Source: Amoebophrya sp. A120
Taxonomy: Eukaryota; Protista; Dinoflagellata
Assembly (NCBI GenBank): GCA_905178155.1
Contig: CAJINV010000005.1
Coordinates: forward strand, 1,731,772 to 1,795,771
Direction of reading: 5' to 3'
DNA: 64,000 nt
Shown: positions 1 to 58,520 of the stretch, piece after piece
Position numbering within the stretch: the first letter of the stretch is position 1
Layout of the letters: each line of letters opens with the position of its first letter
The notes under the pieces: generated by a model
What the model was told of the DNA's origin: nothing
The model's database searches: none
The model's input: only the letters and a program-made list of their open reading frames with translations
Position numbers and translations under genes: made by a program

Positions 1-3000
1 ACGGCGTACTCGGACTGCAGCGTGTGCATGCGCAGCCCGAGCGTGGCGGATTTGAATATGGAGGAGTCTCAAACGCTTTTATATTTTCAACTGCCAGTAC
101 ATGAATTTGTATGTAGAAATGCAAGAACAGCAACAGTGAAGGGGCGACCTTCTACTTGTTCAATAATGTTGCTTGCAAGAACTCTTGCACCACCAATTTG
201 GCACAACGACAGATGCTGTTCTTTAATAGCCCTTTGAGCATTTGTCATGCAATTTAGCTTGATCGTCTGGTAGCTTAGGCTTACGGAATAAATTTTGCAT
301 GACAAATATTAATATTTCGTGTAACAGTTGAGAATCGTATAAAAACTGATTTGAGAACGCCATATGGAAATCCGCGCACGACTTCCGCTATGAACTGCAA
401 AAGTATCGTACTAGTAGTAATTGCAATACAAATTAGCTCAGCATTACAAATGGAATTTGTCATGCTGTTTCGCCTTGGGGTGAAGATTTGTAATGCACGA
501 CTGCGATTGCTACGAGTACGATACTTTTGCACAGGATATCCGCATCTCCGACATGAGCACCACCGCGTGGTGGTTGTTCAGCCACGCGTAGACGAGGAGG
601 AAGGAGACCTATGAATGTGCACAACTCCCCGTCCCCCTCATTTGTATAGCATGAACGGCAATACAAGCATCAGCAAGAATGCCGGTTTTGCATGACAAAT
701 TTGCCAACGAGTGTAGTGCTATTTGGGCTAGTACCAGAACTTGTCATGCAAACAGTGCCACGAGGCAGATGGTGGATCGAAATCGATATGGATTGGGCAT
801 TTTGCATGACAAATGATGGGGAGGGGGAGTTGTGCGGTGTCATAAGACCAGCGCGTAGACGAACAGCCCGATGAGGGAGTTGAAGTAGAGTGCGAACCCC
901 GGGCCCGCGATGTTCTCCGAGTGGATCCGGGTCTTGAAAAAGCTGTAGTACGTGTTCGGGTTCTCCACCGGGCGCGGGATCAGCCGCCCGCGGTGCTGCA
1001 GCCCGGCGGCCTTGTGGTACTCGTAGTTCTCGTCCCCGGGCACCTTGCAGCAGCCGTAGAAGAGCAGTCCCACGAGGAAACAGAGGAGGATCATCACGAA
1101 GCTAATGACGACGCCGCTCGCATACGCATTGTACATGCAGTAGTTCAGGCCCGCGAGCAGCGTGTAGCCCTCCTGGCACTGCAGGCACGTCCGGGGGGCG
1201 ACCAGCAACTCTTCCCACGTCGTCGTGGTCCCGTCGTTGGTGTCGTCGGTCCGCCCCAGGTTGGAAATCGCCTCCGAAATCACGTTCTCGGTGAAAAAGG
1301 CGCCCAGAATTTTGCCGCTCGTCGTGTGCTGCATGCTGATGTGCCCGGCCGTGGCGTCGGTCGGGGTCCCGGCGGTGATGTTGCCCGCATACTTTTCGAT
1401 CAGGGCCATGTCCATCGGACACTCCAGGCACCCCCGGTCCTGGGGACAGGCCTCGCACTGCATCGTGATGTTGTTCCCGTACACCCGGGTCGGATTCCGG
1501 GCGCCCACGTGGCCCTGGTTGGTGCCGAAGGAGACCACCCCGCACTCCTCCTTGGCGACGCAGGAGAGCAGGCAGGAGAAGTAGTGGTCGATCTGCACGA
1601 AGGGGCACTCGGGGGGGCAGAACCCGGCCGCCGAGGCGCGGTTGATGGGGCTGGCGGCGTCGCAGTCCACCTGAAACAGCGTGCGGCAGGGCACGGGGTT
1701 CTTCCCCGAAACGTACCGCCCATCTACCACCTGGACGTACACGCTCTGCCCCAGGGCCTGCTTGTCGCGCCAGTCCTCGGGCTTCAGTTGTGGATCCCCA
1801 AACACCATGAAGTCCGTGGGCAGCCACCGCCGCCGGCTGCGGCCTTCTTCCTCAGCATCCGCGAAACTGTTGTAGTAGTGTCCTTGTCCCATGTGGTAGC
1901 GGTGGGCGAGCACGCCTTGCTCCGCGGCCTCGACGTCGGGAGAAGACGAGGAGGACCGACTACTTCCGGGGGCTCCAGAAAATTCAGCGGAACTCTGCAG
2001 AAGCTGCGGCATCTTGTTCATCTCTCTTGCTTTCAGTCGCTCTAGTGATAAACCTTGTTCACGACCGTCTGTAGTTTCATTGTTTGGAATTTTCTTATTT
2101 CCCAGTAGAGTTTCACCAGCTTTGTTCCCGTACGGTACTGCGAATGGCACCGTCACGTTGGTCGCTCCTTCGCCGGCCGGAATAATCTCGGATATTTCTA
2201 CCGATTGACTGCTGTGCATGTAGTCCAACAACGACCCGTCCTCCGCGTAGTCGTACTGCGCTTGGGAGTTCATCTCCGTCGCTATCAAAGGGAAAAATCC
2301 CCCCTCCCCATATCGAAACGAAGTTTCTGACGCTGGATCTGCGTACACAAATCAGGTCTGTCTTGCTGGAGAGGACTGCAGGCATATGCCAAGCCTGGGT
2401 CGCGAGGTTTTGACGTAGGGGACTAGCATGACAGATATCGGCTCTGTAAGCCCAACAGCATCACAAACCGCCGGCATAATGCGGCGGACTCTCGGGCTTT
2501 GCCTTCCCGCAAGACAGACAGGATTTGTGACCTCAAATCTGCATCACAAATTTTCAGACGAGTGCGTTTTTAATATGGGGAGGGGGGATTTTTCCTCTTA
2601 ATAATCGCCCGTGCCCGGTCCTTTTCCTGCAGGTCTTCCAGGGTCTTGGGGGGATTCTTGTCCACTGCGGTGGTCTCTATTACAGGGAAAAGTGCCCCCC
2701 ACCCCTAAATTGCAAAAATTTGTGATGCGAAGTTTCCAAATGAAAACTTTTTGTCATGCATGAAAGGAGTATGAATCTTTCTGATGCAGAAAGTAGGCGT
2801 GTATCACATCGCTTGCATGACAAGTGCCGCTCTTGCTGGGGTCTTTTGCAATGCAAATTTTTGCTATTCACGATTGAAAACCTGTGATGCAGATAGATGC
2901 AAGAGGGCGAATGTTTCATTTGGAAAGGTTTGCAATACAAATGCTCCCAAGTTCGGGGGTGGGGGCATTTTTCATTGTAATAGTCTCCGACACGTGCACT

Positions 3001-6000
3001 AACACCGACGGCGCGTTCGGAATCACTTCTGCCAGGGACTAGAGCTTTAACACCCGTTAGCATGAGAAGTGGTGAATTTGTAGTGAATTTTGCATGCCAA
3101 ATTGCAGTTGAGCCCGCCGGGACATTGTCCCTCTTGGCCCTGTTCTGGGAAGTAGAAGGCCCTGCACCGCGCAGCAGCCGCGGGCATTTGTGCAGTGGGC
3201 AGCCAGAGGACATGGCCCGGGCGCCGTTCTTTGGGCAGGTTTTTGCGCCTCCGGGTTCTCGCAGAAGAGCACTGCAGCAGCCGCGGCAAAGACGCCAGAA
3301 ATAAAGGCTGCGAAGCGCATACAACTAAGCAAGAAGGCAGGCAAGGACGAAAGGACCCGGCCGAGAGCTTTGACGCATTTTCCCGGCAGGCGCGTGAAAT
3401 CTTGCGGCATTTTCAGCAGAATACAGGCGGGCTTAGGGCAGCAGAGGACTACGCTTTTTCCCCCTTTGCGTTCCTTCTCATGGCCTATCTGTGCACTTTT
3501 TTGAGCACTTTTCTGCGCTAAAGTTTGCTTATCACGGTCGAAAATGGGCGCCCGGTGAATTTTGGGGTGAATTTTGAAAAGGGCGCCGGTGAATTTTGGC
3601 CTCCGGCTCCTTTTCAAAATTCGCTAGCGCGTGAGAAACTCCGGGTTTGGGGGCTTCAAAAAAGTGTCGCAAAAACAAAAAGCCTCAAAATTCACCAAGA
3701 GAATTCTTGACCTGAGAGCCACCTCGAAAAAGACTTGCTCCGGGGGCAAAAACACGCCTGGGGAGTTGTAAGCCGAGCACACCAGGCCAAGCAAGCTAGT
3801 GCCCGTAGCCGAGTCGTGCCTTCCTTTCCACCCGAGGCTACTCCCAGATATCCAATTCCAAGCCACAACCACAACTCGTGAGAGCGCACGTGTTGAACTA
3901 GTGCCCCTGTGTTCAGGCGTCGCCCTCCCTCCCGACCATTCCGGAGAGGAACTTCTGAGGCAGACGCGCAGATGAACAAGAGCCCCACGACCCACACTCT
4001 TTGGTTACATATGCACTACACAGTCCGGCGGGCCCCAGCAAGACCTACCACTACTTCTTTCGGTGCTGCAAGTGCCACCTGGCACCGAGCAGCCCTTCAC
4101 GCTGCGTGAGCTGCTTGGGCTCGTGCCCAGCCCTTTACGCAGCGCACTTCTCTTTTGAAGTGAATGCAAGTCATGCAATACAAATTCACTGCAAATTCAC
4201 CCTTCTGTATGCTAACGACCGTCCAAGGCATAAGCCACTAACACCGACGGCGCGTTCGGATTCACCGAGGCTCCTGCCTGTTGCTGTTGTAGTGTAGACA
4301 ACTGGCTGTCTGTTCCGATCAGATGAGCCCTGGAGCTGAAAATCAGCTGCGTAGAGTTTCTTGCTTCGCTAGAAGTTGTACTCTGTTCGGGGCCACTAAG
4401 CTCGCCATACTCACCTGGCGGCGCGGGCGGAACAAGTCCTCGCGCATCATAGGCCGCGCCACCCCGACCTGCTCGTCCTGTGGTTTCTTTTTTTCCAGAA
4501 GTAGAGGAGACAGAATTTGAAGATGTCCACGACCTTTCTTGCCAGTTCAATCTTCGCTTGTCCGCCTCTTCCATCAGTAGCGCGAAGTCGTGCAGAAAAA
4601 CAGTGGAATTCACTGGCTTCACTCTCATCAAATTCAATATTTGGCTGCTCTTACTGTTCTTGCTAGAAGCACCAGACAAAAAGGATGACACTTGGTCGAC
4701 GAAACCATCCCTGCTGGAATAAGGTATCGTTCCCGCGGACGGAAATGGTTGGTCCGTCCGCCCTGAGCGCTGGTCGTGCAGCCCCAACTGCAAAAAAGCC
4801 TCCTGCCTGTGGTCTGCACCATCGGCAGCTGCACCACCGCCAGGGGGAGTCGCAGAAGCATCTGCCGGAGGAATTTTTCTGGTCGTTGTAGTATCAACTT
4901 CAGTATCTTCACCACCTCCTCCGACCACCGGAGCCGAATTTAGCACCCCGGATTCCTCCTCGGCAGTTTTCCTCAATAGGGCTAGTGTGTTGAACGACTG
5001 CGGTTGTTTGTTCCCGGAACTTGCGGAGTCTGGGCTCCCGCTCGGTTTGGCGGAGCCATTTGATGCGTCCACTTCTGCGAGACCACCTGGCGCGAGTCGT
5101 TCATCTCCTTCGCCAGCTGTGCTCCGCGTCTCCTCGCTCACTCCAGAATTATGCAGTTGTCGTTCGAGCGGGGCCGGTTGTAGACCTCGAGGTGGCTCGA
5201 GATGTTGTGGACGTTGTCCCGGCGCGATCGCGAGCGTCTGTGGCCGAAGATCAGGAAGAGCAACATCATCCTCGTCTTCCACCCTCCAGCGCGGGGCTTG
5301 ATTATAATCCTCATGAGTAAAAATATCAACGTCCCCCACAGTCATGGGAGCCGACGAGGCACCGCCGCCTTCTTGTTGTTCTTCTGATGTGGACAGGGTA
5401 ATCGTGCCCATACCTAAGCCGTTGTTCAATACCAGCGTCTGGATTCTCGCTGCCAGCTCTTCGTCCGATAAAGAGTTCAACGACGTTGTTCCTCCAACAC
5501 CTGGCGCTTGTTGCTCTACCCCTGCTTGGTTCGCCTGGTCTAGCGTCACAGCCCCCCCGGCCACCAGCAAACTATCGTCGTGAGATGTGAGCAAGCCATT
5601 TCTACTAGTACCCAGAACACCAACTGAGGTTGCGGAAGATGATGTTGATGTTCCTCCGTCGGGGTGCACCAGGGCCCCGTTGTGCTTACCGCCGCGGAAT
5701 TCGTGGCTACTGAAATTCACAGCCGCTGTGCGTTCCGGCTGGCGGAGCCAAACCAACTTGTCGACCGCGGCGCTACGCACCTCGAACCGCCCGGGTTTGC
5801 TGTAGATCGGCGCGACCACGTGGCACTCCCGCGCCTCCTTGGTCACCTCGAGACCTCCGTGCAGCATTTCTTCGCCCTGGTTCCGTTGGAAATCTCTCAT
5901 TGCGAGACCATCACTCGTCCCATCCGTGTTTGTCGACGCGGCACCACTGGTGCTCTCCTTTTGTTCAACATCCTCACCGCCTCCACAACAGGCACTGCTC

Positions 6001-6701
6001 GTCGCATCCTCCGCTCTAATCCCCACAGGGTCCACAAAATCCGGCACGGAGGGGGTCACAGACTGACTTGATGCAAGCGGGGACCGCCAAGGTCCACGAC
6101 CACCTTCATGGGGTCCTCGGTCGGACAGCTTTTTCAGCTTGGAGCTGAAACCAGCGTGAAGATCATCTCCTGCGCTTGTTGCTGTTCTTGCGGTAGTACC
6201 CCTCGAGTTTTCTAGTCTCTGTAACCGCAAAGCACCGGCGCGCTGCTGGTGGTTCTCGCGGTGTACCCTTTGTTCTAGTAGAACCGCTGGCGCAGCTCTT
6301 TTTTCATCGCGTGCTGTTCTTCTTCCCCTGCTGTCGTGTTTTAGTACTTCCACTCCCTTATGCAGAAAGGACGAGGACTTCGACTTTTCATCTGCAGAGG
6401 CAGTACTAGATTCCCGTTCAACATCTGGTGCACTGGCCGGACGGCCGCTGCTGAACTTTTTGTTCCTCTTCTCGGTCTTGCTGTCTCCAACGACTTCTTC
6501 ATATGCTTTCTCTGAAGAATCGTCGAGCTTATCCAGCTCTTCGTCTTCCAATTCAGCAAACGTCTTCCGAGTAGGTCGGGACAAAAATAACGCGTCCACG
6601 TTCTTCGTGTAGTAGTAATCTTCTGCGAGTGTCAGAAAAAATACCAGCCGAACCGCGAGTGATCCAACACGTGGCAGCCGTGAGGAAGCTTTTGCCATCA
6701 T
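1..6701 (-). CDS. Large multi-exon membrane protein: N-terminal signal peptide, long low-complexity region, Cys-rich (furin-like) domain, then TM helices resembling TMC/OSCA-like channels; runs off the left edge
   Basis: ORFs 4212..6701 and 840..2348 join in frame through mini-exons after removing elements 3026-4235, 2678-2982 and 2283-2603: ...NAPSVLV-HVSET-TAVDKNPPKTLEDLQEKDRARA-TEMNSQAQY.... Frame continues past 610-844, 389-538 and 57-364: YALVSFLLVYAWLNNHHAVVLMSEMRKSCADFKSATLGLRMHTLQSEYA. The channel assignment rests only on the GPGFALYFNSL motif before TM segments. Confidence 0.75.
57..364. mobile_element. Introner, TATGGCGTTCTCAA family (beta), degenerate left end
   Basis: Ends tatgg..tctcaa / ttgagaacgccata; flanks TTGAA/TGGAA; removal keeps frame. 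Confidence 0.75.
389..538. mobile_element. Introner, TGCAAAAGTATCGTAC family (alpha), 150 bp
   Basis: TIR tatgaactgcaaaagtatcgtac / gtacgatacttttgcacaggata; TSD TCCGC; frame restored. Confidence 0.9.
610..844. mobile_element. Introner, GCACAACTCCCC family (epsilon)
   Basis: About 36-bp imperfect TIR; TSD AGACC; frame restored; can be read as GT..AG by sliding one base into the TSD. Confidence 0.9.
2283..2603. mobile_element. Introner, GGAAAAATCCCCCCTCCCCATAT family (delta-2)
   Basis: About 31-bp TIR; flanks GTCGC/ATCGC; frame restored. Confidence 0.9.
2678..2982. mobile_element. Introner delta-1, 305 bp
   Basis: TIR tattacagggaaaagtgccccc / gggggcatttttcattgtaata; TSD GTCTC; near-identical along its length to 29236-29541. 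Confidence 0.95.
3026..4235. mobile_element. 1.2-kb intronic TIR element flanked by a 30-bp direct repeat of exon sequence
   Basis: Direct repeat 2997-3026 / 4236-4265 (1 mismatch); inverted repeat 3055-3096 vs 4172-4217; internal GGTGAATTT repeats. Confidence 0.85.
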
Positions 6702-7449
6702 TTTCGTGACGAGAGAAGCTGAATAATACTTTAGACAGCCTAATTACCGTGGTTGGGAAATACAAAATTCAAAATCGGGTACGGGTAAGGGATGTTTTAA
6801 GCAAAACGGTAAAACTGTGAGCAGGATTTTCGCGTATCGCAACAGCTGTGTCTTTCACAAACCAAAACTTCCTTCAAATTAATCACACGAAAAACAACAA
6901 ATCCTCGTCCTGAATATGCACTGGACACATAGACTCATCAGACCTGCGTTGTTTGGTTGTAAAAGTCACTGGAATCTTAGGAAGGCGCTGATAAAGCAAT
7001 ACGTAATACCTACAAGGAGTTCATCATCTGGACGAGGACGACATCCAAACGAATGCAGATCCAGAAAAAACGTAAGCACGATGTGAATCAGGACGACGAT
7101 GACGAGCGAACGAGCAAAAACTTTTTTTCTGACCTTCAGACCACGATGCGGGTGAGATATTGGAGAACGATGACAAGGAAACTGAACCGCGACAAGGCTT
7201 ACCAATACCATGCACGTGAGGCACCACGATGTAATTAAAACAAAACATCATCAACAAAAAAAAACTATAGATTTAGATACATCAATAATTTGATTTGCAC
7301 GGCAAGGACGACAACTCTGCTCGGAGTTGTGTGGCAGCAGGCACAGATATCTTCCAGTGGAGTACTCACTCTATCACTCTAGTTGTTGCACAAAGAGCAA
7401 ATCAGCCGACATTTGAGAAACGAGAAACAGGTTTGGACATTTCACATGT

Positions 7450-8005
7450 CAGACTTCAGATCTGGAATCTCAAATCTGGAATCTCAGATCTGGGATCTCA
7501 GATCTGGAATCTCAAATCTGGAATCTCAGATCTAAAGTCTAGAGTCTCAGATCTGGGATCTCAGATCTGGGATCTCAGATCTGGGATCTCAAATCTGGAA
7601 TCTCAAATCTGGATTCTCAACTCTGGATTCTCAACTCTGGAGTCTCAAATCTGGAATCTCAGATCTGGGATCTCAGATCTGGGATCTCAGATCTGGAATC
7701 TCAGATCTGGAATCTCAAATCTGGAATCTCAGACCTGGAATCTCACATCTGGAATCTCAAATCTCAAATCGAAATCTGGAGTCTCGAGTCTCGAGATATT
7801 TCAGATTTGAGGTCTCAGATTTGAGACATTCAGATTTGGGATATTCAGACTCGAGAGATTCAGACTTGAGAGATTCAGGCTTAAGATGTTCAGACTCGAG
7901 GTAGTCAGATCCGGGATATTCAGATTTGGAAATTTGTTGAGACGCCAGCTCAGAGATTTCAGATCTGGCGCCTCACGTCTCACTCTCAGACTTCAGCCAG
8001 ATTTG
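7450..8005. repeat. 14-15 bp tandem repeat (TCAGATCTGGAATC-like)
   Basis: More than 20 copies of the 14-mer up to about 7780, then a diverged, roughly inverted 15-mer after tctcgagtctcgaga. Confidence 0.9.
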
Positions 8006-8139
8006 GGATTGGGGTTGCAGGCGTCAAGCCTCGCGGCTTCTTTCGGGCTCCAAAGATTTCACACCTCGGCACCGCGAGCCTACCCTCAAACCAACCGCCG
8101 GGCGAAGCGGATTGGCTGTGGGCCTCCCAAACCGCCGCG

Positions 8140-9230
8140 GCGGGTTCTGGGCCTTCGGACCTTCTTTCGCTCGCCTCGGGCTTTCGCGTCCGGCCTTCGG
8201 GCCTTCTTTCGGGTTAGTTTTCGAGCGCCTGCGGAACTTCTTTCCGGCTTTCCGGGCTGATGCGTTTGGTTGGGCCTAAACTTTCAGCCATCGCGCCCTC
8301 AATCTTTCGCGCCCCAATCTTGCGGCCCCGAGACCCCAGGGTCCCGGGCGCGCAAGTTAACGCCAGAAGAGCCCGAAAGCGGAAACCAAGCCCGAAAACG
8401 AAAGCCAAGCAGAGCAAGCCTGCCAAGCGACCTGGCCGCGAGAGCCAGCCCCGAAACCGGGACTCAAGTCCGAAAACGGAAACAAGGCCCGAGACCAACA
8501 GCCAAGCTAGTCCGGGGGCGACAGGAAACCAGGCAAGGAAGCGAGAGCCAGGCGGGCACGGAAGCGAAATCGAAAGCCAGGCCCGAAAGCGCCAGCCGCG
8601 CCCGAAAGCGAAGGCCAAGCCCGAAAGCGAAGGGATGGGAGGCCAAGCCCGAAGGCGGAAGCCAAGCCCGACAGCGAAACCAGGGACCAAACCAAGCAAG
8701 CCCCCCCGTCCGAACACGGAGGCCAAGTCTGTCAGAAAGCGAAGCAAGGCCAAGCCCCCCCGAATGCGGAAGGAAGCCAACAAGCCCGAAAGCGGAAGTC
8801 AAGCCCGAAAACGAAAGCCGGGCCCGCAAGCGAAGGCAGAGCCCGCACACGAAAGCCAAGCCCGGAAGCGGAGGCGAATCCCGAAAACGAAAGTCAGGGA
8901 GGCCCGAAAGCGAAGGCCCCGGCAAGTGAAGCCCGAAGGCGAAAGCCAGGCCCGGAAGTATAGGTCGGGCCCGAGAACGAAACCAAGCCCGGGGGCGAAG
9001 CGAACAAAGCCAAGGCCTAAAGCGAAAGCGGAACAAAGCCACGCCTGAAAGCGAAGGAGGGCCATAGCCAAGCGAGCCCGAAAGCAAGGAAGCTAGCGGA
9101 AACCCGGCCCGAAAGCAAAAGCTAGGAAAGCCCGGAGGCAAAAAGCCAAGCCCCCCGAAAACGAAAGCCAAACCCGAAAGCAAAATAAAAGCGAGGCCCC
9201 CCCCCGAAAGCGAAAACCAGGCCCGAGAGC
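8140..9230. repeat. Degenerate GCCCGAAAGCGAAAGCCAA tandem array with a short inverted block at 8140-8260
   Basis: Dozens of cccgaaagc units at 8370-9230; complementary gctttcg/cttcggg units upstream. Confidence 0.85.
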
Positions 9231-10676
9231 AGTGGGGGCGCCTTTTCCGCGGGGCTTCGCTTCGCCGGCGCGCGTGGCGTTCGATTGCGCGGGCGCGCGG
9301 GTGTGTGGCTGGCAGCGGCCGGCGTGGCATTCCGGAATGCGTGCGCCTCGCCGTCGCTTCCGGCCCGGTCGGCCCCTGCCAAAGCGGCCTGGCGGCCGCT
9401 CGGCAGTGTTCGCCCCCAAGGCCTTTGCCACCGCGGGGTCGCGAGGCCGGTCGGTGTACGCCGTGGCGGCGGGTCAGCATCTCCCCGTAATGCGCGCGCA
9501 ACTGCGGACGCCCCCCTTTCGCCACCGTCCTGGCCCTTCTGCCATTGATTACCCCTCCGCCCTTTGCCTGGATATGTGGCGGCAGCCGTCGAGGCTCCGC
9601 TCGCCCGGGCGCGCCCCCGGCGATCTATGTGGCGCTTTTCTTTGGCTAGTGCGGAACCTGCCTCCACGGCCCCCGAGCCTGCCGGGCGGGCAGGGGCTTC
9701 GGCGGCCGGACTTTCGGAAGCGCCCGCCGTCTTGGCTTCCACGCTTCCGTCGCTCCGGTCTTTTTCGCATCATGGGGCGTTCGCCGAGGGGGCGCGCGAG
9801 CGTGCATCTGCTGGCCATTGCCGTGATGCTACGGGCGCCCTCCCCACTGTCCTGCACCTTCTGCCGCTGCCCCCCCGCTCTTTGTCTGGATGCGTGGGCG
9901 ACGCGGAGGCCGCTGGCGTGGCGTGGCGGGGTGCGTCTTCTACGGTCTCTATGGTGTTTTTGGCCGGCTCGACCCTCGTGTCTGTGGCCTTCTCAGCCTG
10001 CCGGACTGGCACCAGAACGGCTTGACTATCGTTATTGATAGTTCTATTTCCCTCGCGCGTTTCTCTGTTTCTCGTTTCTCAAAGATCGGTGGCGACAGGA
10101 CTTGCGCTACTTGTATCTATAAATACTTCAACGAAGTAGAGTGACGATCTTCATTTCTAGCATGTACTTCTACTTCTAAGTGGCATGCGAGCAGCTTTCC
10201 CGAACAAAGCTACATCACAACACGACATTTAGTACGACGCATCAACATCCTGAAGAAGTTGTGATCATCCTCATAGTGCTTCATCTGCACGTGCAGCAGT
10301 AGCTAGCGCGCTCAGGTCAGAAAAATAAATCAAGCGGAGTGTCCAAAGAACGAAGTTCGTTAAGAACGAAGTTCTTTTTTCAGGGTGACACTACATAGGT
10401 AGTACATGATTTTCTTCGCGTACACTGCAGCGTACATCTTTATTTGAGCCGATTGTCATTCTTGGGGAGATCTTCGATGAAAGAATTGCAGCACATACAC
10501 CCAAGCCTCGACAAGATTGTTCATCATCTCGATCTCCGAGGGCTGTCTTCTGTCGCCATTTTCCGTCGGAAAAGCAAAAGCTGTAGAAGATCACATAGAA
10601 GTACACTACACAACTGATCCACGACGTAATATCGTGGCAACGAATGTGATCGCTTGTTCCTCAACTTTTACTCGTC

Positions 10677-12691
10677 CTACCTCGGTGGCCTGACGGCCCC
10701 AGTTCGAATAGTGACAGGTTGCCCCACCTGGTCCAAATCTTCCGTTGCCAGCTGGTTAATCTTCGACGCGGCCTGCGCAATCTTTTCCTTCAGCCCGGCT
10801 GTGGTCACGCTGTCCCTACTGTTCATGATCCTATTTGCAGCAGCAGCTCCACTTGTTCCACCTCCGATGGATGATGATGTTCTACTCCGGCTATGATCTA
10901 GAGTGGACGAAATGTCGGCGCACACCTTCTGAATCTCGGCGTCAATCGCAGACTCCTCTTGCTGCAGACGGTGCGCGTCTTGCTGGTTGGAGGTGCCGTT
11001 TGTCTGCGAAGCTGTCAAGGGTGTACTTGATCCTGCAGATGTCAGCACTCCCGCATGCTGTTGTTCCCGGTGCTGCTTCTGCTGTACTTGCAAATACCAG
11101 TCAACCAAGACGCCAGCAGACACTGCGCCAGCTGTTGAGGAAGCAGAATTAGTAGATGCAGTAGATGTACTAGCTCCACCAACTACCGGACCACTATTAT
11201 TTGATGTGATTCCTGTCGTCATCATCTCCTGCTGCACCTTCGCACCCACTGCCCCGATGATCTTTTGTTCGAACCGGTGAATCAAATCCGACAAAAACGC
11301 CGCCTGCTGTTCGTCCCCGTGGACGGGGGGGATCCCCAGAAGCTTCGCGTTGGTTAGGCTCTCTTGTAGACTCTCGGTGGACATTAGTTTGATTTTATTT
11401 TTGAACAGATCGCCGTTGTTCATATCAAATGCAAAAATGTCTGGGTCTGGAAGATTCCGGGATTTGGGATGCATATTTTGTATGATCCATGATGCATCTA
11501 ATGCATGATCTAGCATCACAGATTTTTAGAGGTCTTTCTGATGCCCATTCTGCATGAGAAATGCCCTCTCCGCGTAACACAAACTGGACTCCTGTTGCTG
11601 GTCACGCAATACAGATTTTTTTGGAATCCAAAGACAGCATGACAAGTTGCAATCTTCCCGACCCAGACATTTTTACATTTCATAGTTCAGATAACTCTGC
11701 ATTTCGCTGATCTTCGCTTGGTGCTGCTCTTGCATTTTTTGCTGCTGCTGCTGCTTGGTGGACGATGTTGATGTTGAACTATGGTCGTGCACCAGCTGCT
11801 GCGCGCTTGAGGAGGTCCTCGCGTGAAGATGTTGTGCGCTTCTGCCGCGGGTTATGGTTATAGTGCCGGTGGGGTTACGACCATTAGTACCCGTATAATC
11901 ATATGGAGTTGTATCACCCCCGGCCGCGAAGGGATTGCTCCTCGAGTTGTAGGGAAACGAACTAGAGCTCGCCGATGCGGTTGGCGTGTGGTCCATCACC
12001 ATCGGCTGATGCGCGCCTTGTGGAACGAAGCCCGTTGGACCAGCCGTTGCTGAAGAGGAACCACTAGAACTATTTCCGCTCCGAACAAGTCCCTTGTTGC
12101 CACTGCTCGCAAGCGTCTCCACTCCGAACTGGGGTATTATGTCCGAAAACAGCCCCCGCGCTGCCGAGGTAGGAGGTTGGTGTGCACCGGCTAGTTCCCC
12201 CGGCTGGTGCTGGGACGACGACGACGATGCCCCGCTGGCAGTCATGAAGACGTTGGTGCGATCTGCTGGCTCGATAATGGAAGATGCCGCCCCGAAACTG
12301 AACTGCGGGCGCGAAGATGAAGGAGCTGCGGATTGATAGGTAGTTTTGAGTGGAACAAAATGTTGCAATTTTAATGCTTGCGATATGAAATCATTCATCC
12401 TCCCCTAGTAGCAAGAGAAAAATTGATGCCATGCCCAGGCATGGAAAGAAAGAAAGAAGGAAAGAAAGTAGCAAGAGAATGAAAAAGAGGCGCGACCATG
12501 ATGTGAAGTGATGCACTACTATCGCACGCTATTATAGAAGAAGTCACCCTCCTACCTCTCTCAAAGCCACCGCCCCTGCCGCCCGTGATAAGCTCATCTC
12601 GGTCGAATCGTACGCGCAATGGGCTCTTCGGAACGCTCAGATCGGCGGTTGAAGGATACAATGCCTCCGAGGATTCCGCAGGTGCAGGCAT
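10677..12691 (-). CDS. Hypothetical Ser/Gln-rich protein, 3 exons
   Basis: Exon MPAPAES..GRR; canonical GT-AG intron 12405-12547; exon GRMNDF..QSYLN; introner 11423-11684; exon NGDLFKNK..PPR-stop; all in frame. Confidence 0.75.
11423..11684. mobile_element. Introner, TATCAAATGCAAAAATGTCTGGGTC family (gamma)
   Basis: TIR with gacccagacatttttacatttcata; TSD GTTCA; frame restored. Confidence 0.92.
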
Positions 12692-17084: not shown

Positions 17085-18245
17085 TTCGTCGGGAGGTACT
17101 ACTGGAGGACACGGGTAAGTAAGCAAATGATACCGACTCTTCCGGTCACTCAGATCGGTTCTGATCTTCTTCTGCGGCTTTATTTTTCCCGGATGAGAAA
17201 TGAAATCACACACGCCGCTCTTCTTTAGCGTAACTAATATTACAATAAAAACGAGGACTTGGGATTCACAAACCACCACCGGAAGAAGGAAGATTCAAAT
17301 GATAGGAGGGATACTCCTCTTAGTGTACAGAATGAGGATTGCTTATTTTTTTGGGGGTAGCGTTAGCGCAGTTGTCGCTAATTTTCTGACCCAGATGGGT
17401 CCCTGGTTGAAAGAATGTTTCGTAAACTTTATGTTCAACCTATGCTGGAATGTCGTATCTTTATCGTCGAACTGTATTCTACACATATTTAACTCTGGTT
17501 TCACGAAGTAAGTTCACGACCATCTGAGCACGCACGGAACCGAGCCGGCAAAGAAAGATAGTCTCTCAACCGACGAAAGGCTTTCAGTTCTTAGTACGTT
17601 CACAAACTCACAATCAACCAAATCGCACGAGAAACCGAAAATAGCTAAAGCACAGCAGACCGAGCAGACGTATAACGCTTGTGAAGACGAGGCACAACAC
17701 CGATTCATATTCATATTTTGGTCCGCAACGACGTACCGAGACCGAGACAAGGCGTTATTTTGTTTTTGCACGAAGTCCAACACACGAGAACGGTGCTACG
17801 ACGATCATCTAAACAAACACGCGCACTTTGGTCTACTAATTGAGGAACACTTCAAGAAGTAAGGACATGCACTACGTCTGTGCAGGTAGCGCTGTCATCC
17901 TTGATGTAGACGAGTACGGACGGGTAATTATCTTTCTTTTTCTTATCTTTCGCTCAAAGATACTACCTCAATGTGAAACAACATCAAAAACGCTCAGCTT
18001 TGCTGAGAAAGAAACCGTAGTTGTGCCAGAAACAGCACGCTAAGATCTGCGCTCCTCGTCCTCGGATTCGGAAAAAAGAAGGAAAACAAAACTCATTTAA
18101 GGTCTTAGTCCGATCGCTCCTTGCATCAAAGTCGTATTCCAAAAACGCATTCGAAATTACTGCGATCTTCGACAAAATAAGCGAATAACCTTAATCACGC
18201 ATCTCAGCAGGCATCCGACAAAGAGTGCCTGCTACGCCCTGCTCC

Positions 18246-37754: not shown

Positions 37755-37919
37755 TTTGTTTCAAGCGTTCGCGTTGTTATTTCTTTATTGGTTCGACAAG
37801 GTGGAACAAGAACAAGGCATGGTACGGAATAGGTGCAGTTCCATCGTGTTTCATGTTTTTGCTTTAAAAGGAATTGAAAAAGTAACAACAGAAGATCTTA
37901 AAGGCAACTCATTTAGAGT

Positions 37920-43370: not shown

Positions 43371-44146
43371 GAGTAGTTGAGTGGTGTCTGTTGTTGCTGC
43401 AGTTCTTGCTCAAGTAGAGAAAAAACACAAATCACGATGGTGCTGCACCTATTCCGTACCATGCCAACAACAAGAACTCGGGTGCGGCCTAAAAATAAAT
43501 GCGCTTTTGCTCTGGTGCCAGTGTTCCTGGTTCTGTATTTTCATTTTCATCTCCAGCACGGAGTGGTGGTCGTGCGCCTGCGCCTCGAAAAACTCCACTC
43601 CCATGAACTTGAATAAACGGCCTCCAATTTTTATGTTCATCTGCAGCTCTGCTCTAACAAGTGCGTCGAGCAGAGGACGTTCTTGAAGCTATTTTTCATC
43701 ACTACAACGCCTCTCTAGTACCGCATAGGAGGTTTGATGCGCCGCCAACGCTCATCTCCACTCAGAAATCGCAGATAAACTGCTCGAAGACACGACAACT
43801 AGGAAGTTACAGTGGTCAGCACCACTTCCTCCATCATGTTTCAGTTTCTGTTGCTTGTTCTTTTGCCTCATTGCAAAAATATGAAAAGGAAATTTCGGTC
43901 CCGCCCCTGCCTGCCGTGGGATAGGTGCAGCTACCCTACAGCTACACCGAAACGCTTGTTAAAAGTGTTGTAATAAGGAGATCTACCAAACCTGCACGAG
44001 ATTCTTTTATTTCTTGTGCAGAACATCCTCTAGTAAGTTGTGGGCACTACATCACATTTTTTCACTATAACACTGTAGCAGTTTCGGTCACACAGCTCTA
44101 CTACAGTCTTCATCATTCATATTCCTCATGCTGGGCTGTGGCTGAA

Positions 44147-49635: not shown

Positions 49636-52600
49636 TCATCTAAGATGGATCCGCGATGCACTGCACGACTTCACTCGCATTCGGGTTCTGGTTGCGGTTC
49701 GCCAAGATATAGACAGCAAATAATATTTTGTCTGAGAACTTAATGCAGCACGTGCAAAAAAGGTATTTCTGTATTTTGCAGAGTCGTCACAGAATCCGCA
49801 TGATATTCTTTGTTCGCAGCCGCCGCTGACGAGTCGGCAGCTGCAACGATAAAACCATATTTCAATTTCTCTCTTGATGCACAAAACTTGATGCAACATT
49901 GATAAACCCAGACATAATATATTTGCAATCGATACATCCGCCCGCGCGACTGGCTGTTGCCCCACCACGGGAGCCGGATTTTGGTGCTGCGGGTTCCCGT
50001 AGGCTGCGTGCGTGTGCATCGGAGCTGCAGAAGCAGCAGCTCCACCACCACCGATGGCTCCTGCTGCCAGTTATGCATATGCAAAACAAGTACTTAATAT
50101 CGCCAAAGAACTAGTGTAGGAAAAATTATCGGATGACAAATTTATCTCAGAGGAAAAATTCAATTCCCTTTGTTATGCAGATCCAGGTTGATAAACAAGC
50201 AGATCTACCAGATTTTGATTGATTAATGTAGCTACGCCCCCTGACGTACCTCGGTAGCCGATCGCTCTACCAGCCGGAGGTGCTAATCCAGCTCACATTT
50301 GATGACAATACTATGGTGCATAATCCAGATCACATTCACAAAAAATTGCAGTTTTGCACAAACCATGTTTGTTTGTAAGACTGCAATTTTTAAACAAGTA
50401 CGAGTGCGATAGTACTTTTGCATTGCATACCGCTGCACCTGGAGCAATCCCTCCAGCCGTTGACGGATGCAAAGGGGGCGGCGCAGTTTCAGATACTATG
50501 AGAGTGCACAAGAACTCCTCCTCCTCGCCCTCGTTTGTCATGCAATACCACATCAACAACTCTACGACAGGCCCCTTTTGGTTTTGAGTACTCCGCTGCA
50601 TGACAAGTTGCAGATGCAGCGACCCAAGCTGCACTACAGTCCCCACATGAAATAATTGTAACGCTACGCCTTTGCTGTTTTCCGTGATCATGCTGCTCAT
50701 GCCCTTCAAACTATGAGGCGGGGAGCTCGGAGCTATGCATTCTCGTATCAGGTGTAGTGGTCACCGAAGCAGTGCTAGTGATAGAGCCGGAACTTTGACT
50801 AGACAAGGGACAAGCGGCTCTACTAGTACTTGCTGTACTAGGACAACTCGTCCTGCTAGAAGACCCTGCGCCACCGGTTCTTGTTGCAGAGCTAGTGTGT
50901 GTTTGTGTGTTTGCAGCATCACAGACGCCGTTGATCGTCGCACCTGCCGAGGAAGAACTTGTACTACCAGAAGGAGTGACACCAGCAGGAGGACCCCGAC
51001 CCCGAGTAGTTCCTCCCGCCATGATGCAGTTGGAATTACTGCGAACAAGTGCTTCATCCTGGACCTCCGATGAGGTAGACTGATCTCCTGTTCTTCCCGG
51101 CTGGCCCGCGATCGCAGCTGTAGGAACCTCGCCCGAGTTGAAGATGGCTGTTGCATCAGGACTAGCAACTCGTCTTCTAGGAGATGGGCCAGGTGATGAT
51201 GAGATCCTCCTTGTCCTCCTCGTCCCCGTTGTGGGCGTGCCTTCTTGATGCACCGTTGTTCCACCCACGGCGGCCCTTCCCGCGGGGGCGCACGTGGTCG
51301 CGCCGTCGCAAATTGCCACAGAAGGCGAGGAAGGCCTCCTGCGCGCCCTCGTCCTCCCGCCACTGCTTCTATTCGCGTTGGCTCCTTCTACACGACGAGA
51401 CGACGCCGCAGGTCGTGCGTCGCGGGGATAAGGACAACTTCCAGGTCGTGGAGCTCCTGCCGCTGCAGCGGGCGCTATGCTGTTGCTAGTACCGCCTGGC
51501 AGTGTAGTTGCAGACGAAGTTGAAGAACCGCTCCCCAACATCGATCCCCGCAGCGGCTGCGCAAGAAGAGCCGCGTAGTCGTGGTGGTGGTGGTCCTCGT
51601 CATCGTATAAAAATTCCGCCTCGGAGGGGTAAGAGTCTGGAGTCCTGGCGCTACTTTCTGCTTCTCCGCCCGTGCTTGTAGAAGACGAGGATGCTGAGGA
51701 GGTGGAGGAGAAGAAAGTAGTACTCGGAGCAGAAGATAGTGACGACCATGGGGTCGTGGACCAAGAAGATCTACTTCTGCTATTTGAGTTGTAATTTGCT
51801 ATCCAGCGGCTCCAGAAGTAGTCGTGTTTTATCTCGTCTTGTTCAGCAGCAGCAGCGTCGTGGCCCCTAGCACTGGAACTGTCTGCGCGGCCCGTTTGAT
51901 CTACTGCGTGCAGCAGACCACCATGCGCATGCGGGTCGTCCGCGACGAAAGAGACAGCAGCTGCAGGAGGAGGGCGGTCGTCCTGCAGTTGGCCGGCGCT
52001 TCTTTGATGTTGCCCCTGCTGCTCTCCGGCACAAGAACCAGCTTCCCGGTCGTCGTTCGCGGTATTTACCAGGAGGGGGTTTTCGGCCGCATCTTGTCCT
52101 ACTTCTTGCTGCTGCGCTGTGCTCCAGTTCCGGTCGAAGTTATCAGCCTCTGCCTCTGAAGATGTTGAGGACGAAAATAGTAACCCAGAAAATACCGAAG
52201 TAGATGAACCTGCAAGATGAAACCTCCCGCCTTCATCGTCGGTGTGGTGGGTGGAGGATCGGCCGCGGGGGCACCACGACATCCAGGGGTGTTGTCGGTA
52301 AAAGAACATCACGTAGACAAGCACGAAGACTAGCACTAGCGCAGTGAGAGGAATGAAAATCAAGCCCAGCGGTTGTAGTCGGGGCAGGTGCAAGAGGGGA
52401 GGTTCTTGGTGATCATGTTGTGCTGCATTGGTGGTGCTGGATGCAGCAGCTCCTGTAGCTGAAGAGAAAGCTGAAGCAGCTGGAACAACAACCACCTTAG
52501 CAATCTCTCTTCCCATCCTCGTCGCTGCCGCCAAGATGACGTCCAGGTGGAGGGAATCCAATCTCATCGCCGCGAAGCAGTCCCGCACTGCTGCGACAAA

Positions 52601-53959: not shown

Positions 53960-54029
53960 TTTTAATAGCTACAAAACCGGATTTCATTCTCATGCCGTGC
54001 AGCTGCAGTTGGTGCGAGTACGGTACTTT

Positions 54030-57000
54030 TCAAGTGGATATCTCGCCGACCATGGCAAAAAAAGATGAACGCATTGGAGATGAAGAAGCATCCTGCTCCT
54101 CATGAGCGGCGTCGTGGGCCCACAGCGCCGCGCCACCTTTCTTCGACCCCGAAGACCCACGACCTCGCTTGGTGCGTGCCCGGGCACCGGCATATCCTGA
54201 GTAAAAACGTACCCACACCAGAGTCAGGATGGGGATTTTGCAACACAAACCTAGGAGTTTTGTGAGTCACGCATGACAAGTCGCACTCTGCAGTGTAGTG
54301 CAGATTAGCAAGTGCAGCCGCATCACAGATTCATCTGCTGATCCTGTTCACAGCATCACAAATTCCAAAACACGACTGAAAATGGCTCTCATGCGGATGC
54401 GCATTACAAGTCTTCCTGTCTTTGCAAATCTGCATTACAACTCTGGTGTGGGTACGTTTTTACTCAGGATACGGCATTTTTCGCGGCCAGCTCGCCCAGG
54501 TCACCGTCGCCAAGTTGCGTCACTCGTTTGTGATCCCTGCCATCCTATCAAATGCAAAAGTGTCTGGGTCTGGAAGGATCACAGAAAAATCTCTCACGCA
54601 TAGGTAGGAAAAGCTGCCCACTTTCTGTCACCAAAATGGGGGATTTCTCATGCGGGTTCGGCATTGCGGAAGCTTCTCGAAACCTGTGATGCTAGAGTTT
54701 CCATGCCAGACCTTCTGTGTCATGCAAAAACAGCATGAATCTTCCGGACCCAGACATTTTTACATTTGATACATCCTGTTTGTGTGCCTCGAGTCGGGCG
54801 ATCGCATTTTCGACCTCGAGGATTTTCTTGCCCACCGGGGTCTTGGCCTCCAGTGCCTGCCGCCGCTGGTCGGACTCACTCTCGGCCGTCAGTCGGGCAC
54901 GCCGCCGGGTAGTCGCGACAGCGGTCAGACCAACAGCAGCCGCATATGAACTGCAACAGTCTCGCACTCGTAGCAATTGCAATCATGCATTATAGTTTTT
55001 TTCTCAAGGTAAATCCACATTAAAAATTTTATTTCTCACGAAAAGGAAATTTGATGTAAGTAAAAATGCAATTTATACGTAGTACGATGCTTTTGCATTG
55101 CATACTGCAGAGCCAACAGCGACCACTCCCGGGTTTCCCTTTATAGTGTCCGCGACTGTCTTCCCCATTTCGGTCATTTGGTCCGTTTGCTTGTTGACGA
55201 CGTTTTCTAAAGCCCCAAAGCTTGACAAGTCCAGGTTGTGGCCATCATGGCCGTCTTCTTCTTCGAAATAATGGGCCAGTTGTTCAGGAGTGTCGAGGGG
55301 ACGAGGTAATGCGTGGCCTGGATTTTCCGGGTCTTCTAAGCTTATATGCGTGTGCAGCAGGTCGGAGGGAGAATTATCGTCGCCAACTCCGAAGTGCAGT
55401 GTATTCAGGAAGGACAGCTTGAGTGCTTGTTCACCGTCCGCCGCGCTTGAGGCATCCGGGTCCTGCTTTTCCATTAACTCATCAAACAGCTTGCCGGCCA
55501 GCGTCTCCGCGTCGTCCGTCTGCTTCAACATCGGTTCGCCGCCAAGGAGGGTTATGGCGTTCTCAAGCGTTACACCCTCAACTGTTACAACGCGATTAGT
55601 CATGCAGGATGACAATGAGCCGCCAGACGATCAAGCTGCTTCGCATGACAAATTCTTGAAGGGCTAAACAGCATGTAAATCTGTGCCAAAGAAATCTGTC
55701 ATGCAAGACGCGCAAGGTCCCCCCTTGCACTTTTGCGAATCTTGCGTCACAAATTCTTTCGTGTAACAGTTGAGAATGTAACATTTGAGCACAATTCCAT
55801 AAGGGTGTACAAACCTTTGTGATCGCTGACAAACCCGTCCAGGGAGCCGGAGTCCGTGAAAAACGCTTTGAAATCCTCTTTACTCATCACTTGGTTCCTA
55901 TCGCAAGAAAAAACTGTTTCACTGTGAACTTGTGATGCAGAAAATGTATCTGAGAAGTGTTTGTCTTACTACACATGCAAGACAATGGATTTTTAGCTGT
56001 GTTTTCCCTTTGGGAATCTCGCATGGCAAATTTTCTCTGTGATGTAGAATAAACTTGTGATGCAAAACTTGCAGCACCCTTACAGTGAAACACTTTTTTC
56101 GTACGATAGTTCCCGTTCCCGGCGCTGCTCGTCATGGCGCTCTGGAACTCCGTCATTGTGTGTTCCAGCGCCGCCGAGTCGAACAGCTCATTCTGCTTCA
56201 GGAAGCTCTCGGCAATTTCGCTGGTGTGCCCCTCCTTACCTTCTGTGTTCGTTGCAACGGCTTGCAGGAATGTGTCCTCCGTGTCGTATGTTACGTCAAT
56301 CTCGTCGTCTGTGATGCCGAATTTTGTTTTGACCGCCTCCCAGGCCGTGTCCGCATCGACGTCCAGCCCTGCCTTGCCATGCTGGCCCGGCACGTCGACG
56401 TCCTGCAGCAGGGTCTCGCGAAACTGATTGGTGGTCGAGGATCTTTCGCCGTCATTCTCCCACAATCTCTCGAAATTGGCCTTGCTAATCTTTTATCCAA
56501 TGCAAATAAGAGAGAGAGAGAGAGAACTGACATAATAAATTAGGCCAGACAATATACGACGAACATCACACAGAAGAACGCTGGCCTTGCTCCCGTCCAA
56601 CTGCTAGCGTGATGCCTCTCCGCCCACCTTATCAAATGCAAATAAGTATGTTTGGGTCTGGAAGATTAGTCACGCTGCTTTTGCATCACACAGGAGGTCT
56701 ACTACTTAGCATGGAAGCTCTAGCATCGCAGGTTCTACTTTCGGGAAGCTTCGGCTTCCGCAATGCCGAATCCGCATGACAAATGCCACCCAATTTTGGT
56801 GACAGAAAGTGCTGGGCAGCTTTATTTGCTGCCTATGCTGCATAGAGAGATTTGCATGTGTTGTGAAGTGCGAATCACCAGTTTGATGCATTCTCTCAGA
56901 CATCCAGGGATGAGTATTTGCAAGGCATATCTTTCCCCCTGCGTGGTCGTTGCCATGATTTTCATGTGCTTCCGCAACCACGGCTTTCAGCCAGTTCGTC

Positions 57001-58520
57001 TGATCGACGTCATTTTCGCCGCCCATGGCGTCCTTCCATTTCGGCACGTCCACGTGGTCCGCTCCGCTGTCTGGAATCCCGTGAAGGTCCGCAAACACGT
57101 CCGTCACCGGAACCTTCCCCGCACCAGGAACTGTGGGATCGCCCGGAATCTTCTCCGTGTCGCCAAACGCCTCTTTGAGATCAGCCATTTCCACGGTCTG
57201 GGCGGGAGAATCTGGTCCGTCGGGGTACTCGAACTCCTGAAACAAGGCGTCGACCGCCTGCTTCTTGGCAGGCTCTTTTCCCCCGAGCATGTAGAAGAGG
57301 CCTTTGTATTTGGTATCGACTTTGCCGTCGGGGTCGTTTTCGTCCACCAAAAAAAACTTCTCAAACTCCTGCTTGGTGATTTCGTCTGCGTGCTCCCCAA
57401 ACGTCTCCAGTGCAAATATGTTGTCTGGGTCTGGCGGAAAGAATGGGATTTAGATTTACCATGCTACTGACTTTCAATAATGCAACAAAATCAAAAACCT
57501 GTATCGCATGACCAACGGAACGCGCTCCGGTTTTTGCCTCGCGGAGGAGGCATTTCTGATGCAGGATAAGCATGATGAGCAACCTTTCGCGAAAGCTGTG
57601 TTGCTCTTGCTAGAGCGTGCTCGTGCATTAGCATTACCGGCAACATAATTATAGTTATACATCATTTGTTTTTGAAGGACATCATGACCCACCGGCATCG
57701 CGGTGGATCATGCGTATGCGTATCTACATCCTGCATGGGAAACTATATCCTGTATGCGTATGCGTCTGCATCTATCTGCATGGGAAACTCCTCCAATCTT
57801 CGTTGGTCCAGACGACACGGACATATTTGCAATGGATACGCTGCGTCGTCTTGCAAAATCGCCTTCTCGTTCAGGTCGCGGATCTGGTCCTCGATGTCCG
57901 GCTTATAGTCGGAGTGTCCCAGCTTGCCCTCGGTCTCGTCGGGAAAGAGCGCCGCTTCACGGAGTATCTCTTTCGCTGCAAATACTCCTCCGTGATGGTC
58001 GGACACAGCTTCCTTATTAGGAGTTGAAAGGAAGTTTGAGTTTATGGATATGTGTGAGTTTGTGTCCCAGGATTCCCGATGGAGGAGTTTGTAAACGAAA
58101 TCGCCCGGGTTGTTCCACCACTTCTTTATCGTCGCATCCCAGGCGTTTCCGCCGCCGTCGTCCCATTCGTGCATGGGGTTCTCAGTCTTTACATTGATCG
58201 CTGTATACATGATTTTCTCGTGATTTGCCATGCAAGAGTCGCAAAAGCAAAACAAGCCGGGACCTCTGTCGCGCGTCGCGGGGCTGCAAATGCAATATGA
58301 GTCGGCTTGAAGATCATGCCGATTTGCATCCCATTTTTTTTTTTTTGATTGAGGTTCTGCATGACAAATCAAGGAAAAAATCCTCTTACAGCGAGCAATG
58401 ACACTACGTTTGAGAGCGCCATACCCTGTACCATCTTGCCCCAAGCGTCAGAAGCATCTTCGTCGCTGGGGAGGGGGCCGAGCGTTTCTTTGAAGGAGTC
58501 CTGGAAATCATCCAACATGA
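54030..58520 (-). CDS. Hypothetical acidic multi-exon protein with a C-terminal hydrophobic anchor-like segment; 5' part cut by the element at 58533
   Basis: Asp/Glu-rich exons in ORFs 57743..58444, 56706..57350, 55887..56465, 55073..55615, 54692..54982 and 54030..54248, separated by introners; GNPGVVAVGSA-AAVGLTAVATTRRR. Confidence 0.7.
54193..54471. mobile_element. Introner with a perfect 32-bp TIR
   Basis: tatcctgagtaaaaacgtacccacaccagagt and its exact reverse complement; TSD CGGCA. Confidence 0.95.
54546..54771. mobile_element. Introner gamma
   Basis: Gamma TIR; TSD CATCC. Confidence 0.92.
54945..55104. mobile_element. Introner alpha
   Basis: tatgaactgcaa / ttttgcattgcata; flanks CCGCA/CTGCA. 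Confidence 0.85.
55553..55801. mobile_element. Introner beta
   Basis: Beta TIR; TSD AGGGT. Confidence 0.9.
55899..56108. mobile_element. Introner, singleton TIR type
   Basis: tatcgcaagaaaaaactgtttcactgt / acagtgaaacacttttttcgtacgata; TSD GTTCC. Confidence 0.9.
56630..56929. mobile_element. Degenerate gamma introner
   Basis: tatcaaatgcaaata..tttgggtctgga / tatttgcaaggcata; TSD not conserved. Confidence 0.65.
58204..58423. mobile_element. Degenerate beta introner
   Basis: Right end tttgagagcgccata; flanks CGCTG/CCCTG. Confidence 0.7.

Follow-up and report, generated by a model that had tools for sequence, protein, structure and literature searches.

The stretch described here is a 64,000-nt window of the genome of Amoebophrya sp. 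A120 (assembly GCA_905178155.1, contig CAJINV010000005.1, positions 1,731,772–1,795,771, forward strand). Its genes are co-oriented on the minus strand and are interrupted by elements of 110–330 bp, which start with TAT, end with ATA and carry A at positions 11–14. The coding strand is read as minus because an exon encoding a URGCP-like GTPase domain lies on that strand (Table 1). A short internal word, GCAT(G/C)ACAA, recurs in these elements in both orientations. It is the most frequent 9-mer of the window, with 56 exact sites (31 plus, 25 minus; mean 1.46, maximum 5 in 100 dinucleotide shuffles). Forty-one of the sites fall in elements called de novo from terminal inverted repeats (TIRs) and target-site duplications (TSDs), 12 in copies found by homology and three elsewhere (20200, 24736, 25495). 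That is, 53 of 56 lie within TAT...ATA introners of the MITE (miniature inverted-repeat transposable element) type with 5-bp TSDs, or within remnants of such elements. GC-rich blocks of the window hold no exact site (empty at 2823–11637, 36517–46194 and beyond 58367). The original prediction, made on this window, had cited the word at 16 positions; it is present at all of them, within 0–2 bases.

The sample comprises 722 kb: the window and 658 kb of non-redundant DNA from one second assembly (JACKZZ01 contigs). Loci of the second assembly were fetched with one TIR pattern (138 matches, 131 kept, overlaps trimmed; named L001–L138), a selection that over-represents families 1, 2, 3 and 6. A first-pass caller, requiring TAT and ignoring the TSD, gave 474 elements. 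A caller using both TIR and TSD gave 506 elements, 27 of them in the window, and no false call in three shuffled windows. The 506 elements form 60 clusters, 22 of them multi-member; 15 families with at least eight members were aligned. Homology search (nhmmer) gave 619 near-full-length copies, with TSD mismatch as the age marker. Sites are counted as intact at a position weight matrix (PWM) score of at least 9. The coding mask is a self-trained hidden Markov model, in rough agreement with RNA-like pieces and missing some introns. Transcript strand is predicted and is assigned to 292 of the 506 elements. The RNA-like contigs come from two runs classed as RNA by guess only, which applies wherever they are cited below. 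One raw RNA run (X8) provided only 38 partial reads and was not used.

The elements are known introners and match the description given for A120. They are short, non-coding, high-copy, grouped in families and bounded by TIRs and TSDs, as is typical of MITEs. In the TIR logo of the 474 first-pass elements (TAT imposed by the caller), A stands at 0.82–0.94 at positions 11–14. A 5-bp TSD accompanies 350 of these 474 elements, called without it, and a 6-bp TSD accompanies none. Removal as non-canonical introns is seen at two places. At 18582–18847 an RNA-like contig skips 266 nt (261 + 5), the element and one TSD copy. Around 27435–27887, one exon piece stops at 27434, the next starts at 27888 and exactly 55 nt remain between them, the elements being missing, each with one TSD copy. 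A DNA-like run contains the elements, at a summed depth (not copy number) of 3,000–260,000 in the main element-bearing bins against about 27 for unique DNA. According to the available text of the A120 genome paper, the inverted repeats consist of TAT, seven variable bases and at least three A, with direct repeats of 3–5 nt at the boundaries (PMC7789003). Non-canonical introns of A120 average about 240 nt, and its genes are co-oriented (PMC7789003, PMC12130899, available text). Among the rows listed in PMC12130899, A120 elements are entered as DNA elements with TIRs, their superfamily given as unknown.

Refined on 722 kb, the full word has 11 bases, GCA(T/a)(G/c/t)A(C/g)A(A/g)(A/g)(T/c), with GCATTACAA, GCATGACAG, GCATGAGAA and GCAATACAA as frequent variants; the nine-base form originally proposed is real and too narrow. 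Called elements or homology-detected copies contain 1081 of the 1133 exact sites. Density per kb is 6.6 in called elements, 5.9 in homology-detected copies, 0.5 in other short intron-like gaps (5 sites in 10 kb), 0.16 in other long non-coding DNA (40 sites; 3–6 in shuffles) and 0.02 in predicted coding DNA (7 sites in 294 kb). The expected enrichment over other DNA, and the rarity noted for coding DNA and GC-rich blocks, both hold. Recurrence across TIR families, also noted at the outset, is general: about 4.6 sites occur per element (506 elements), and the median is at least two in 53 of the 60 clusters, whose TIR interiors are unlike. The seven clusters below that median are all singletons. 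The motif may resemble the Sox-Oct composite and the ApiAP2 TGCATGCA word.

Spacing of the sites is regular. Same-orientation pairs show a sharp peak at 31–33 bp (266, 168 and 91 pairs); three turns of B-DNA measure 31.5 bp. At the level of consensus sequences, 80 sites yield 25 same-orientation pairs at 30–33 bp, whereas 5000 null randomisations average 3.6 and never exceed 12. In 16 of 18 families most members have a pair of this kind, and on inspection the spacers between paired sites look unalike across families. Inverted pairs exceed the null at 13–15 bp (5 against 1.8), 18–19 bp (4 against 1.0) and 49–52 bp (8 against 1.5). These inverted spacings suggest a lattice of alternating sites, since 14 + 18 = 32. 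Most terminal sites lie 30–50 bp from each element end, and they point outwards in about two thirds of elements (first site 339/498, last site 337/498). Family 13 is a minimal element of 109 bp, consisting of two TIRs and one 32-bp pair.

Motif columns are less divergent than spacers in all 15 aligned families (0.090 against 0.192), at a level similar to the TIR (0.093). Invariant motif positions diverge by 0.040, against 0.195 expected from context-matched spacer positions, a control that rejects low mutability as the source of conservation. On internal branches of the per-family trees, invariant positions change at 0.09 times the spacer rate and the TIR core (TAT/AAAA) at 0.10 times; the counts are 37 changes in 10480 for the invariant motif and 1940 in 50180 for the spacer, an 11-fold lower rate. 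On terminal branches the ratio is 0.39, a value that blends post-insertion decay with unsampled lineage history, for which reason the TSD-mismatch age marker was added. In older (TSD-mismatched) copies, the extra divergence of invariant bases relative to spacer is 0.51 (confidence interval (CI) 0.18–1.58), 0.71 (0.38–1.47) and 0.72 (0.44–1.35) by age class, with family-stratified bootstrap CIs that include 1 and exclude 0.09; assembly errors would likewise shift this ratio towards 1.

Decay of the motif differs from that of the TIR core by −0.004 (CI −0.022 to 0.013) in one-mismatch copies, and no difference is seen at 1–2 mismatches either. The TIR core decays faster only once copies with 3–5 mismatches are added (−0.032, CI −0.053 to −0.014), the ends of which are often mis-aligned. 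Window copies follow the same trend (motif 22/451, 20/199 and 37/190; TIR core 2/266, 6/140 and 20/110). Because constraint is strong on internal branches and post-insertion decay keeps step with the TIR, the motif is probably needed mainly during lineage multiplication; it does not clearly outlast the TIR. The original prediction held that it does, and that claim fares poorly: old copies retain invariant bases somewhat better than neighbouring spacer, within CIs that include 1, and no better than the TIR. Of its examples in introns without a recognisable TIR, the sites at 24736 and 25495 are true orphans, and those at 36435, 36471 and 46194 lie in family-alignable copies with degenerate TIRs.

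The word is a real, selected cis-element of introners, apparently undescribed so far. Motifs published for A120 introners are, in the available text of the papers, terminal inverted and direct repeats only; the present findings concern an internal word, its spacing rule and its conservation. The A120 genome paper, in the text available, saw no unifying family signal beyond the termini (PMC7789003). 'GCATG' has no match in its main text and text supplement, figures S19–S25 lying outside the text search. No description of an internal word or of its spacing was found in the available text of PMC7789003, PMC11282704, PMC9860276 and PMC12130899. A literature search that included the 10-mer gave, among the matches listed, unrelated ones only; Roy et al. 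2023 (Curr Biol) lay outside its scope.

Insertions relative to family consensus in the 15 aligned families show peaks at 3 bp (228 cases) and 6 bp (76 cases), compared with 64, 61 and 31 cases at 2, 4 and 5 bp; deletions show no 3- or 6-bp peak. Among the 6-bp insertions, 34 of 76 consist of one base and a 5-bp duplication (0.3 expected); 12 of these 34 are perfect 6-bp duplications as well. Among the 3-bp insertions, 150 of 228 are a 2-bp duplication plus one base (36 expected), 27 perfect tandem duplications included. Such duplication-plus-one insertions suggest cut-and-paste movement, with the insertions as excision scars. A fixed identity of the extra base is unsupported. Scars of 3 and 6 bp are candidates for frame-preserving changes in exons, adding one or two codons, and could there bear on the fast protein evolution reported for the genus.

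Taken with the sequence evidence above, the word is probably a subterminal double-stranded DNA (dsDNA)-binding site of one shared putative transposase or of its obligatory co-factor. A shared trans-acting factor is indicated because one internal word is under selection of TIR strength across dozens of families, and a dsDNA-binding protein is the candidate mobiliser because of the site spacing. A protein acting as a multimer would dock on paired sites, which a distance of three helical turns places on the same face of the DNA, and would help to bring the two element ends together. The element would then be excised and inserted with a 5-bp staggered cut. Copies losing sites would drop out of the propagating pool; an inserted copy would no longer need its sites, which would decay along with the TIR. 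Presence in both orientations would be explained by the two ends of a DNA element, with no requirement for splicing in either direction; splicing itself would depend mainly on the paired termini together with the TSD. A subterminal transposase site was one of two options originally offered, and it agrees with the three-turn spacing, the outward polarity at the ends and the TIR-core-strength constraint in propagating lineages.

Known mobile elements offer partial likenesses. Ginger2 termini are TGT..ACA, unlike TAT..ATA here; Tn7-like elements have TGT..ACA ends, a 5-bp TSD and 22-bp sites. Repeats near the element ends, conserved together with the TIR in mobile lineages, are found here as in elements with subterminal repeats. 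In Arabidopsis, a pogo-like transposase (Lemi1) binds subterminal repeats of the MITE Emigrant cooperatively (PMC1636448, available text). Emigrant is likewise a non-autonomous TIR element with internal motifs repeated in either orientation, the arrangement of which matters for cooperative binding (PMC1636448, available text); unlike there, the word here, known from sequence alone, is common to dozens of families, extends throughout the element and is spaced at 31–33 bp. IS3EU/GingerRoot elements have TA..TA termini (TAYGG..CCRTA in fungi), as do the present ones, with a TSD usually of 6 bp instead of 5 bp; Ginger2/TDD elements have TSDs of 4–5 bp (PMC10045372, PMC12730594, available text). 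Tn7-like transposons, which are bacterial and autonomous, carry an array of repeated sites for the transposase (TnsB) at each end; the sites are longer (15–20-bp motifs in the cited search), and the analogy is architectural only (bioRxiv 10.1101/2021.08.23.457393, available text).

Several points weigh against a shared transposase. No transposase is found in the 0.72 Mb, and 17 open reading frames (ORFs) searched against Pfam gave no transposase domain (one host GTPase matched). Farhat et al. conclude, in the available text, against general transposase mobilisation in A120 (PMC7789003). The subterminal repeats of Emigrant duplicate a portion of the TIR (PMC1636448, available text), whereas the present word has no relation to the TIR interior, which is family-specific. 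Length changes of at least 2 bp are not depleted between paired sites (0.476 against 0.480 per 100 bp elsewhere), and shared length variants occur in 4 of 22 paired-site intervals against 8 of 33 others. Protection of the spacing against insertions and deletions (indels) within families is thus unsupported, as is a six-turn spacing peak (1 against 3.5 expected). Because neither indel depletion nor a six-turn excess is seen, the 32-bp spacing may be partly an inherited ancestral unit. The 32-bp pair is missing from families 9 and 11. Families are akin, one TIR being common to families 1, 2, 3 and 6 and another to 8, 10 and 14, and because of these common TIRs they do not count as independent tests. 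A TAT..ATA element of 873 bp (L071:13016–13888), its 5-bp TSD perfect and its long TIRs intact, holds no site; it may belong to a different system or simply be an exception. The post-insertion ratios of 0.5–0.7 may leave room for some host selection or for a partial role in place.

The 873-bp element also contains an internal inverted repeat. Viral contigs gave no match to the TIR pattern or to the TIR-plus-pair pattern. Prokaryote genomes gave nine scattered matches in unrelated taxa, with at most three PWM sites per locus (rough chance about 3), and these are treated as chance.

A host dsDNA-binding protein, chromatin- or transcription-factor-like, might instead bind the phased pairs and be exploited by the elements for mobility, perhaps with co-transcriptional marking of introns on DNA; this is unlikely. 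It shares with a transposase the dsDNA signatures of pair spacing and both orientations. It would also account for one word across many TIR types, for post-insertion decay estimates of 0.5–0.7 instead of 1 and for a genome in which, according to the available text, no transposase is reported for introners and U1 snRNA is not detected (PMC7789003). A general host factor is unexpected because the word is nearly missing outside elements (other non-coding DNA has 45 exact sites in 260 kb, besides the seven in predicted coding sequence). Among introns removed in RNA-like contigs, two GT-AG-compatible ones and one TIR intron have no site.

An RNA-level splicing signal, read by a protein or guide RNA and occurring in both polarities to allow splicing whichever way an element inserts, was the other option of the original prediction and is decidedly improbable. 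Both polarities are indeed held by 247 of the 292 stranded elements, UUGUCAUGC is in slight, non-significant excess on the transcript (125 against 101 elements, p=0.13), orphan sites, one a 33-bp pair, remain in two predicted GT-AG introns, and a redundancy of 4–6 sites could mask selection on single sites. Against this, 37 of 292 elements hold one polarity and eight none. Each of the 15 families with at least four stranded copies is found in either orientation relative to the predicted transcript (smallest p 0.058), including the single-polarity families 6 (only plus sites; 5 against 7) and 13 (only minus sites; 6 against 2), which would speak against the claim that both orientations serve splicing of either insertion. 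Site polarity on the predicted transcript is not fixed (603 against 699); the element at 34022–34141 presents UUGUCAUGC alone. The motif-free element at 37204–37411 appears spliced, because RNA-like pieces start from 37412. Constraint weakens greatly once a copy has inserted, and a fixed three-turn spacing is not expected of single-stranded RNA sites. Folding of the transcript predicts mostly base-paired sites (mean 0.75, range 0.44–0.99), and a Rfam scan of the window gave no match.

It is very improbable that the word is structural, copies of opposite polarity pairing so that the intron RNA, or a single-stranded DNA intermediate, closes into a rod continuing the TIR stem. Pairing of motif with motif is predicted at 0.46 on average (150 sites), and the excess of inverted pairs noted above would agree with it. 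Pairing needs no single sequence across unlike families, however, and families 6 and 13, of single polarity, cannot pair in this way. Selection for a stem is disfavoured because, in 8 of 9 families, the terminal sites of the left and right ends do not match at degenerate positions. That word and spacing are without current function, left from one ancestral element with a 32-bp tandem unit and kept by descent, as the lack of indel depletion and the common TIRs might suggest, is scarcely credible and largely refuted because the 11-fold lower internal-branch rate and the context-matched control require selection.

Features of the window are listed in Table 1. The composite element at 25999–26935 is missing as a whole among the listed pieces of an RNA-like contig, and the orphan pair at 25495–25538 is likely a relic of an eroded element.

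Table 1. Introners, orphan sites and host exon in the window, with motif sites by position.
Feature	Position	Strand	Sites	Remarks
Degenerate introner copy, family 11	65–364		241, 297	nhmmer match, TSD with 1 mismatch
TAT..ATA element, family 0, 150 bp	389–538		457	Perfect 5-bp TSD
Element, family 7	610–844		690, 741, 804	
Element, family 8	2283–2603		2458, 2541	
Element, family 14	2678–2982		Same-orientation pair 2720/2751 (31 bp), 2815	
Element, family 2	11423–11684			Called
Element, family 6	18587–18847			Missing with one TSD copy in RNA-like contigs
Element, family 10	23208–23534			Called
Element, family 0	23598–23747			Called
Element, family 5	24189–24408			Called
Orphan site	24736–24746	+		Predicted GT-AG intron without detectable TIR
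Element, family 0	25061–25211			Called
Orphan same-orientation pair	25495–25538	+	25495/25528 (33 bp)	Predicted GT-AG intron
Element, family 11	25726–25949			Called
Element, family 10, split by ~620-bp nested insert	25999–26935		Pair 26042/26074 (32 bp)	
Element, family 11	27440–27677			One TSD copy removed with element, RNA-like contig
Element, family 0	27738–27887			One TSD copy removed with element, RNA-like contig
Host exon, URGCP-like GTPase	27888–28602; also given as 27865–28632	−		Pfam PF25683 (E=1e-27); RNA-like piece from 27888
Element, family 14	29236–29541		Pair 29279/29310 (31 bp)	
Element, family 0	29588–29727			Called
Element, family 3	30087–30355			Called
Element, family 1	30403–30654		Five PWM sites	
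Minimal element, family 13, 120 bp	34022–34141		Same-orientation pair 34069/34101 (32 bp)	Two TIRs
Older element, family 5	34881–35103		35035	
Older element, family 0	35177–35323		Decayed	
Degenerate copy, family 0	35371–35549		35500	Homology
Element, family 0	35862–36000			Called
Degenerate copy, aligned part	36410–36557		36435, 36471	TIR recognisable; homology
TAT..ATA element	37204–37411		No PWM≥9 site	Perfect TSD; RNA-like pieces start at 37412
Degenerate copy, family 4	46153–46528		46194	Homology
Degenerate copy, family 7	50497–50746			Homology
Element, family 4	54193–54471			Called
Element, family 6	54546–54771			Orientation opposite to copy at 18587
Older element, family 0	54945–55104			Called
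Copy, family 11	55553–55800			Homology
Element, family 5	55899–56108			Called
Degenerate copy, family 6	56630–56906			Homology
Degenerate copy, family 11	58173–58423		58359	Homology

Long elements (0.5–1.1 kb) are nested or insert-bearing copies; one ORF was scanned and has no Pfam domain. In a family 12 element (L010:505–1608), a GC-rich insert replaces the right half, both TIRs and the TSD are intact, and the open frame of 238 aa has no Pfam match. Other structures of the window are as follows. At 2998–4261, an insertion of about 1.2 kb lies between two 24-bp direct repeats (2998–3021, 4238–4261), with inverted arms at 3055–3090/4182–4217 and a 32-bp motif pair at 3060/3092. A tandem array with a unit of about 14 bp (GATCTGGAATCTCA-like) occupies 7455–7960 and adjoins a GC-rich block. 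Inverted arrays of a repeat of about 75 bp with GGTCTCCGGTCCTCGGTCC (37966–39700 and 42190–43350) flank a GC-rich region and hold no motif sites. A 1.3-kb insert at 38239–39576 is bounded by an inverted repeat. A fold-back-like inverted repeat of A/T-run subrepeats (216 bp, 90%) lies at 60169–60734. An intron-free ORF of more than 1200 codons with an MKS/AMSSMAPSA-type repeat (13543–17190, minus strand) contains no motif-bearing element.

A more far-reaching version of the shared-protein reading is quite unlikely: one DNA-binding protein would read the 32-bp lattice in all introner families, mobilise them with frame-preserving 3- and 6-bp scars, and mark introns on DNA for co-transcriptional removal by a U1-less spliceosome. 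If true, an intron would be defined by a double-stranded-DNA code instead of RNA splice sites. The word and its 32-bp pair would be a ready bait for the protein that mobilises introners of the Amoebophrya type, and they would make that mobiliser directly searchable. They also separate two processes that are easily conflated, the signal for mobility and whatever permits splicing.

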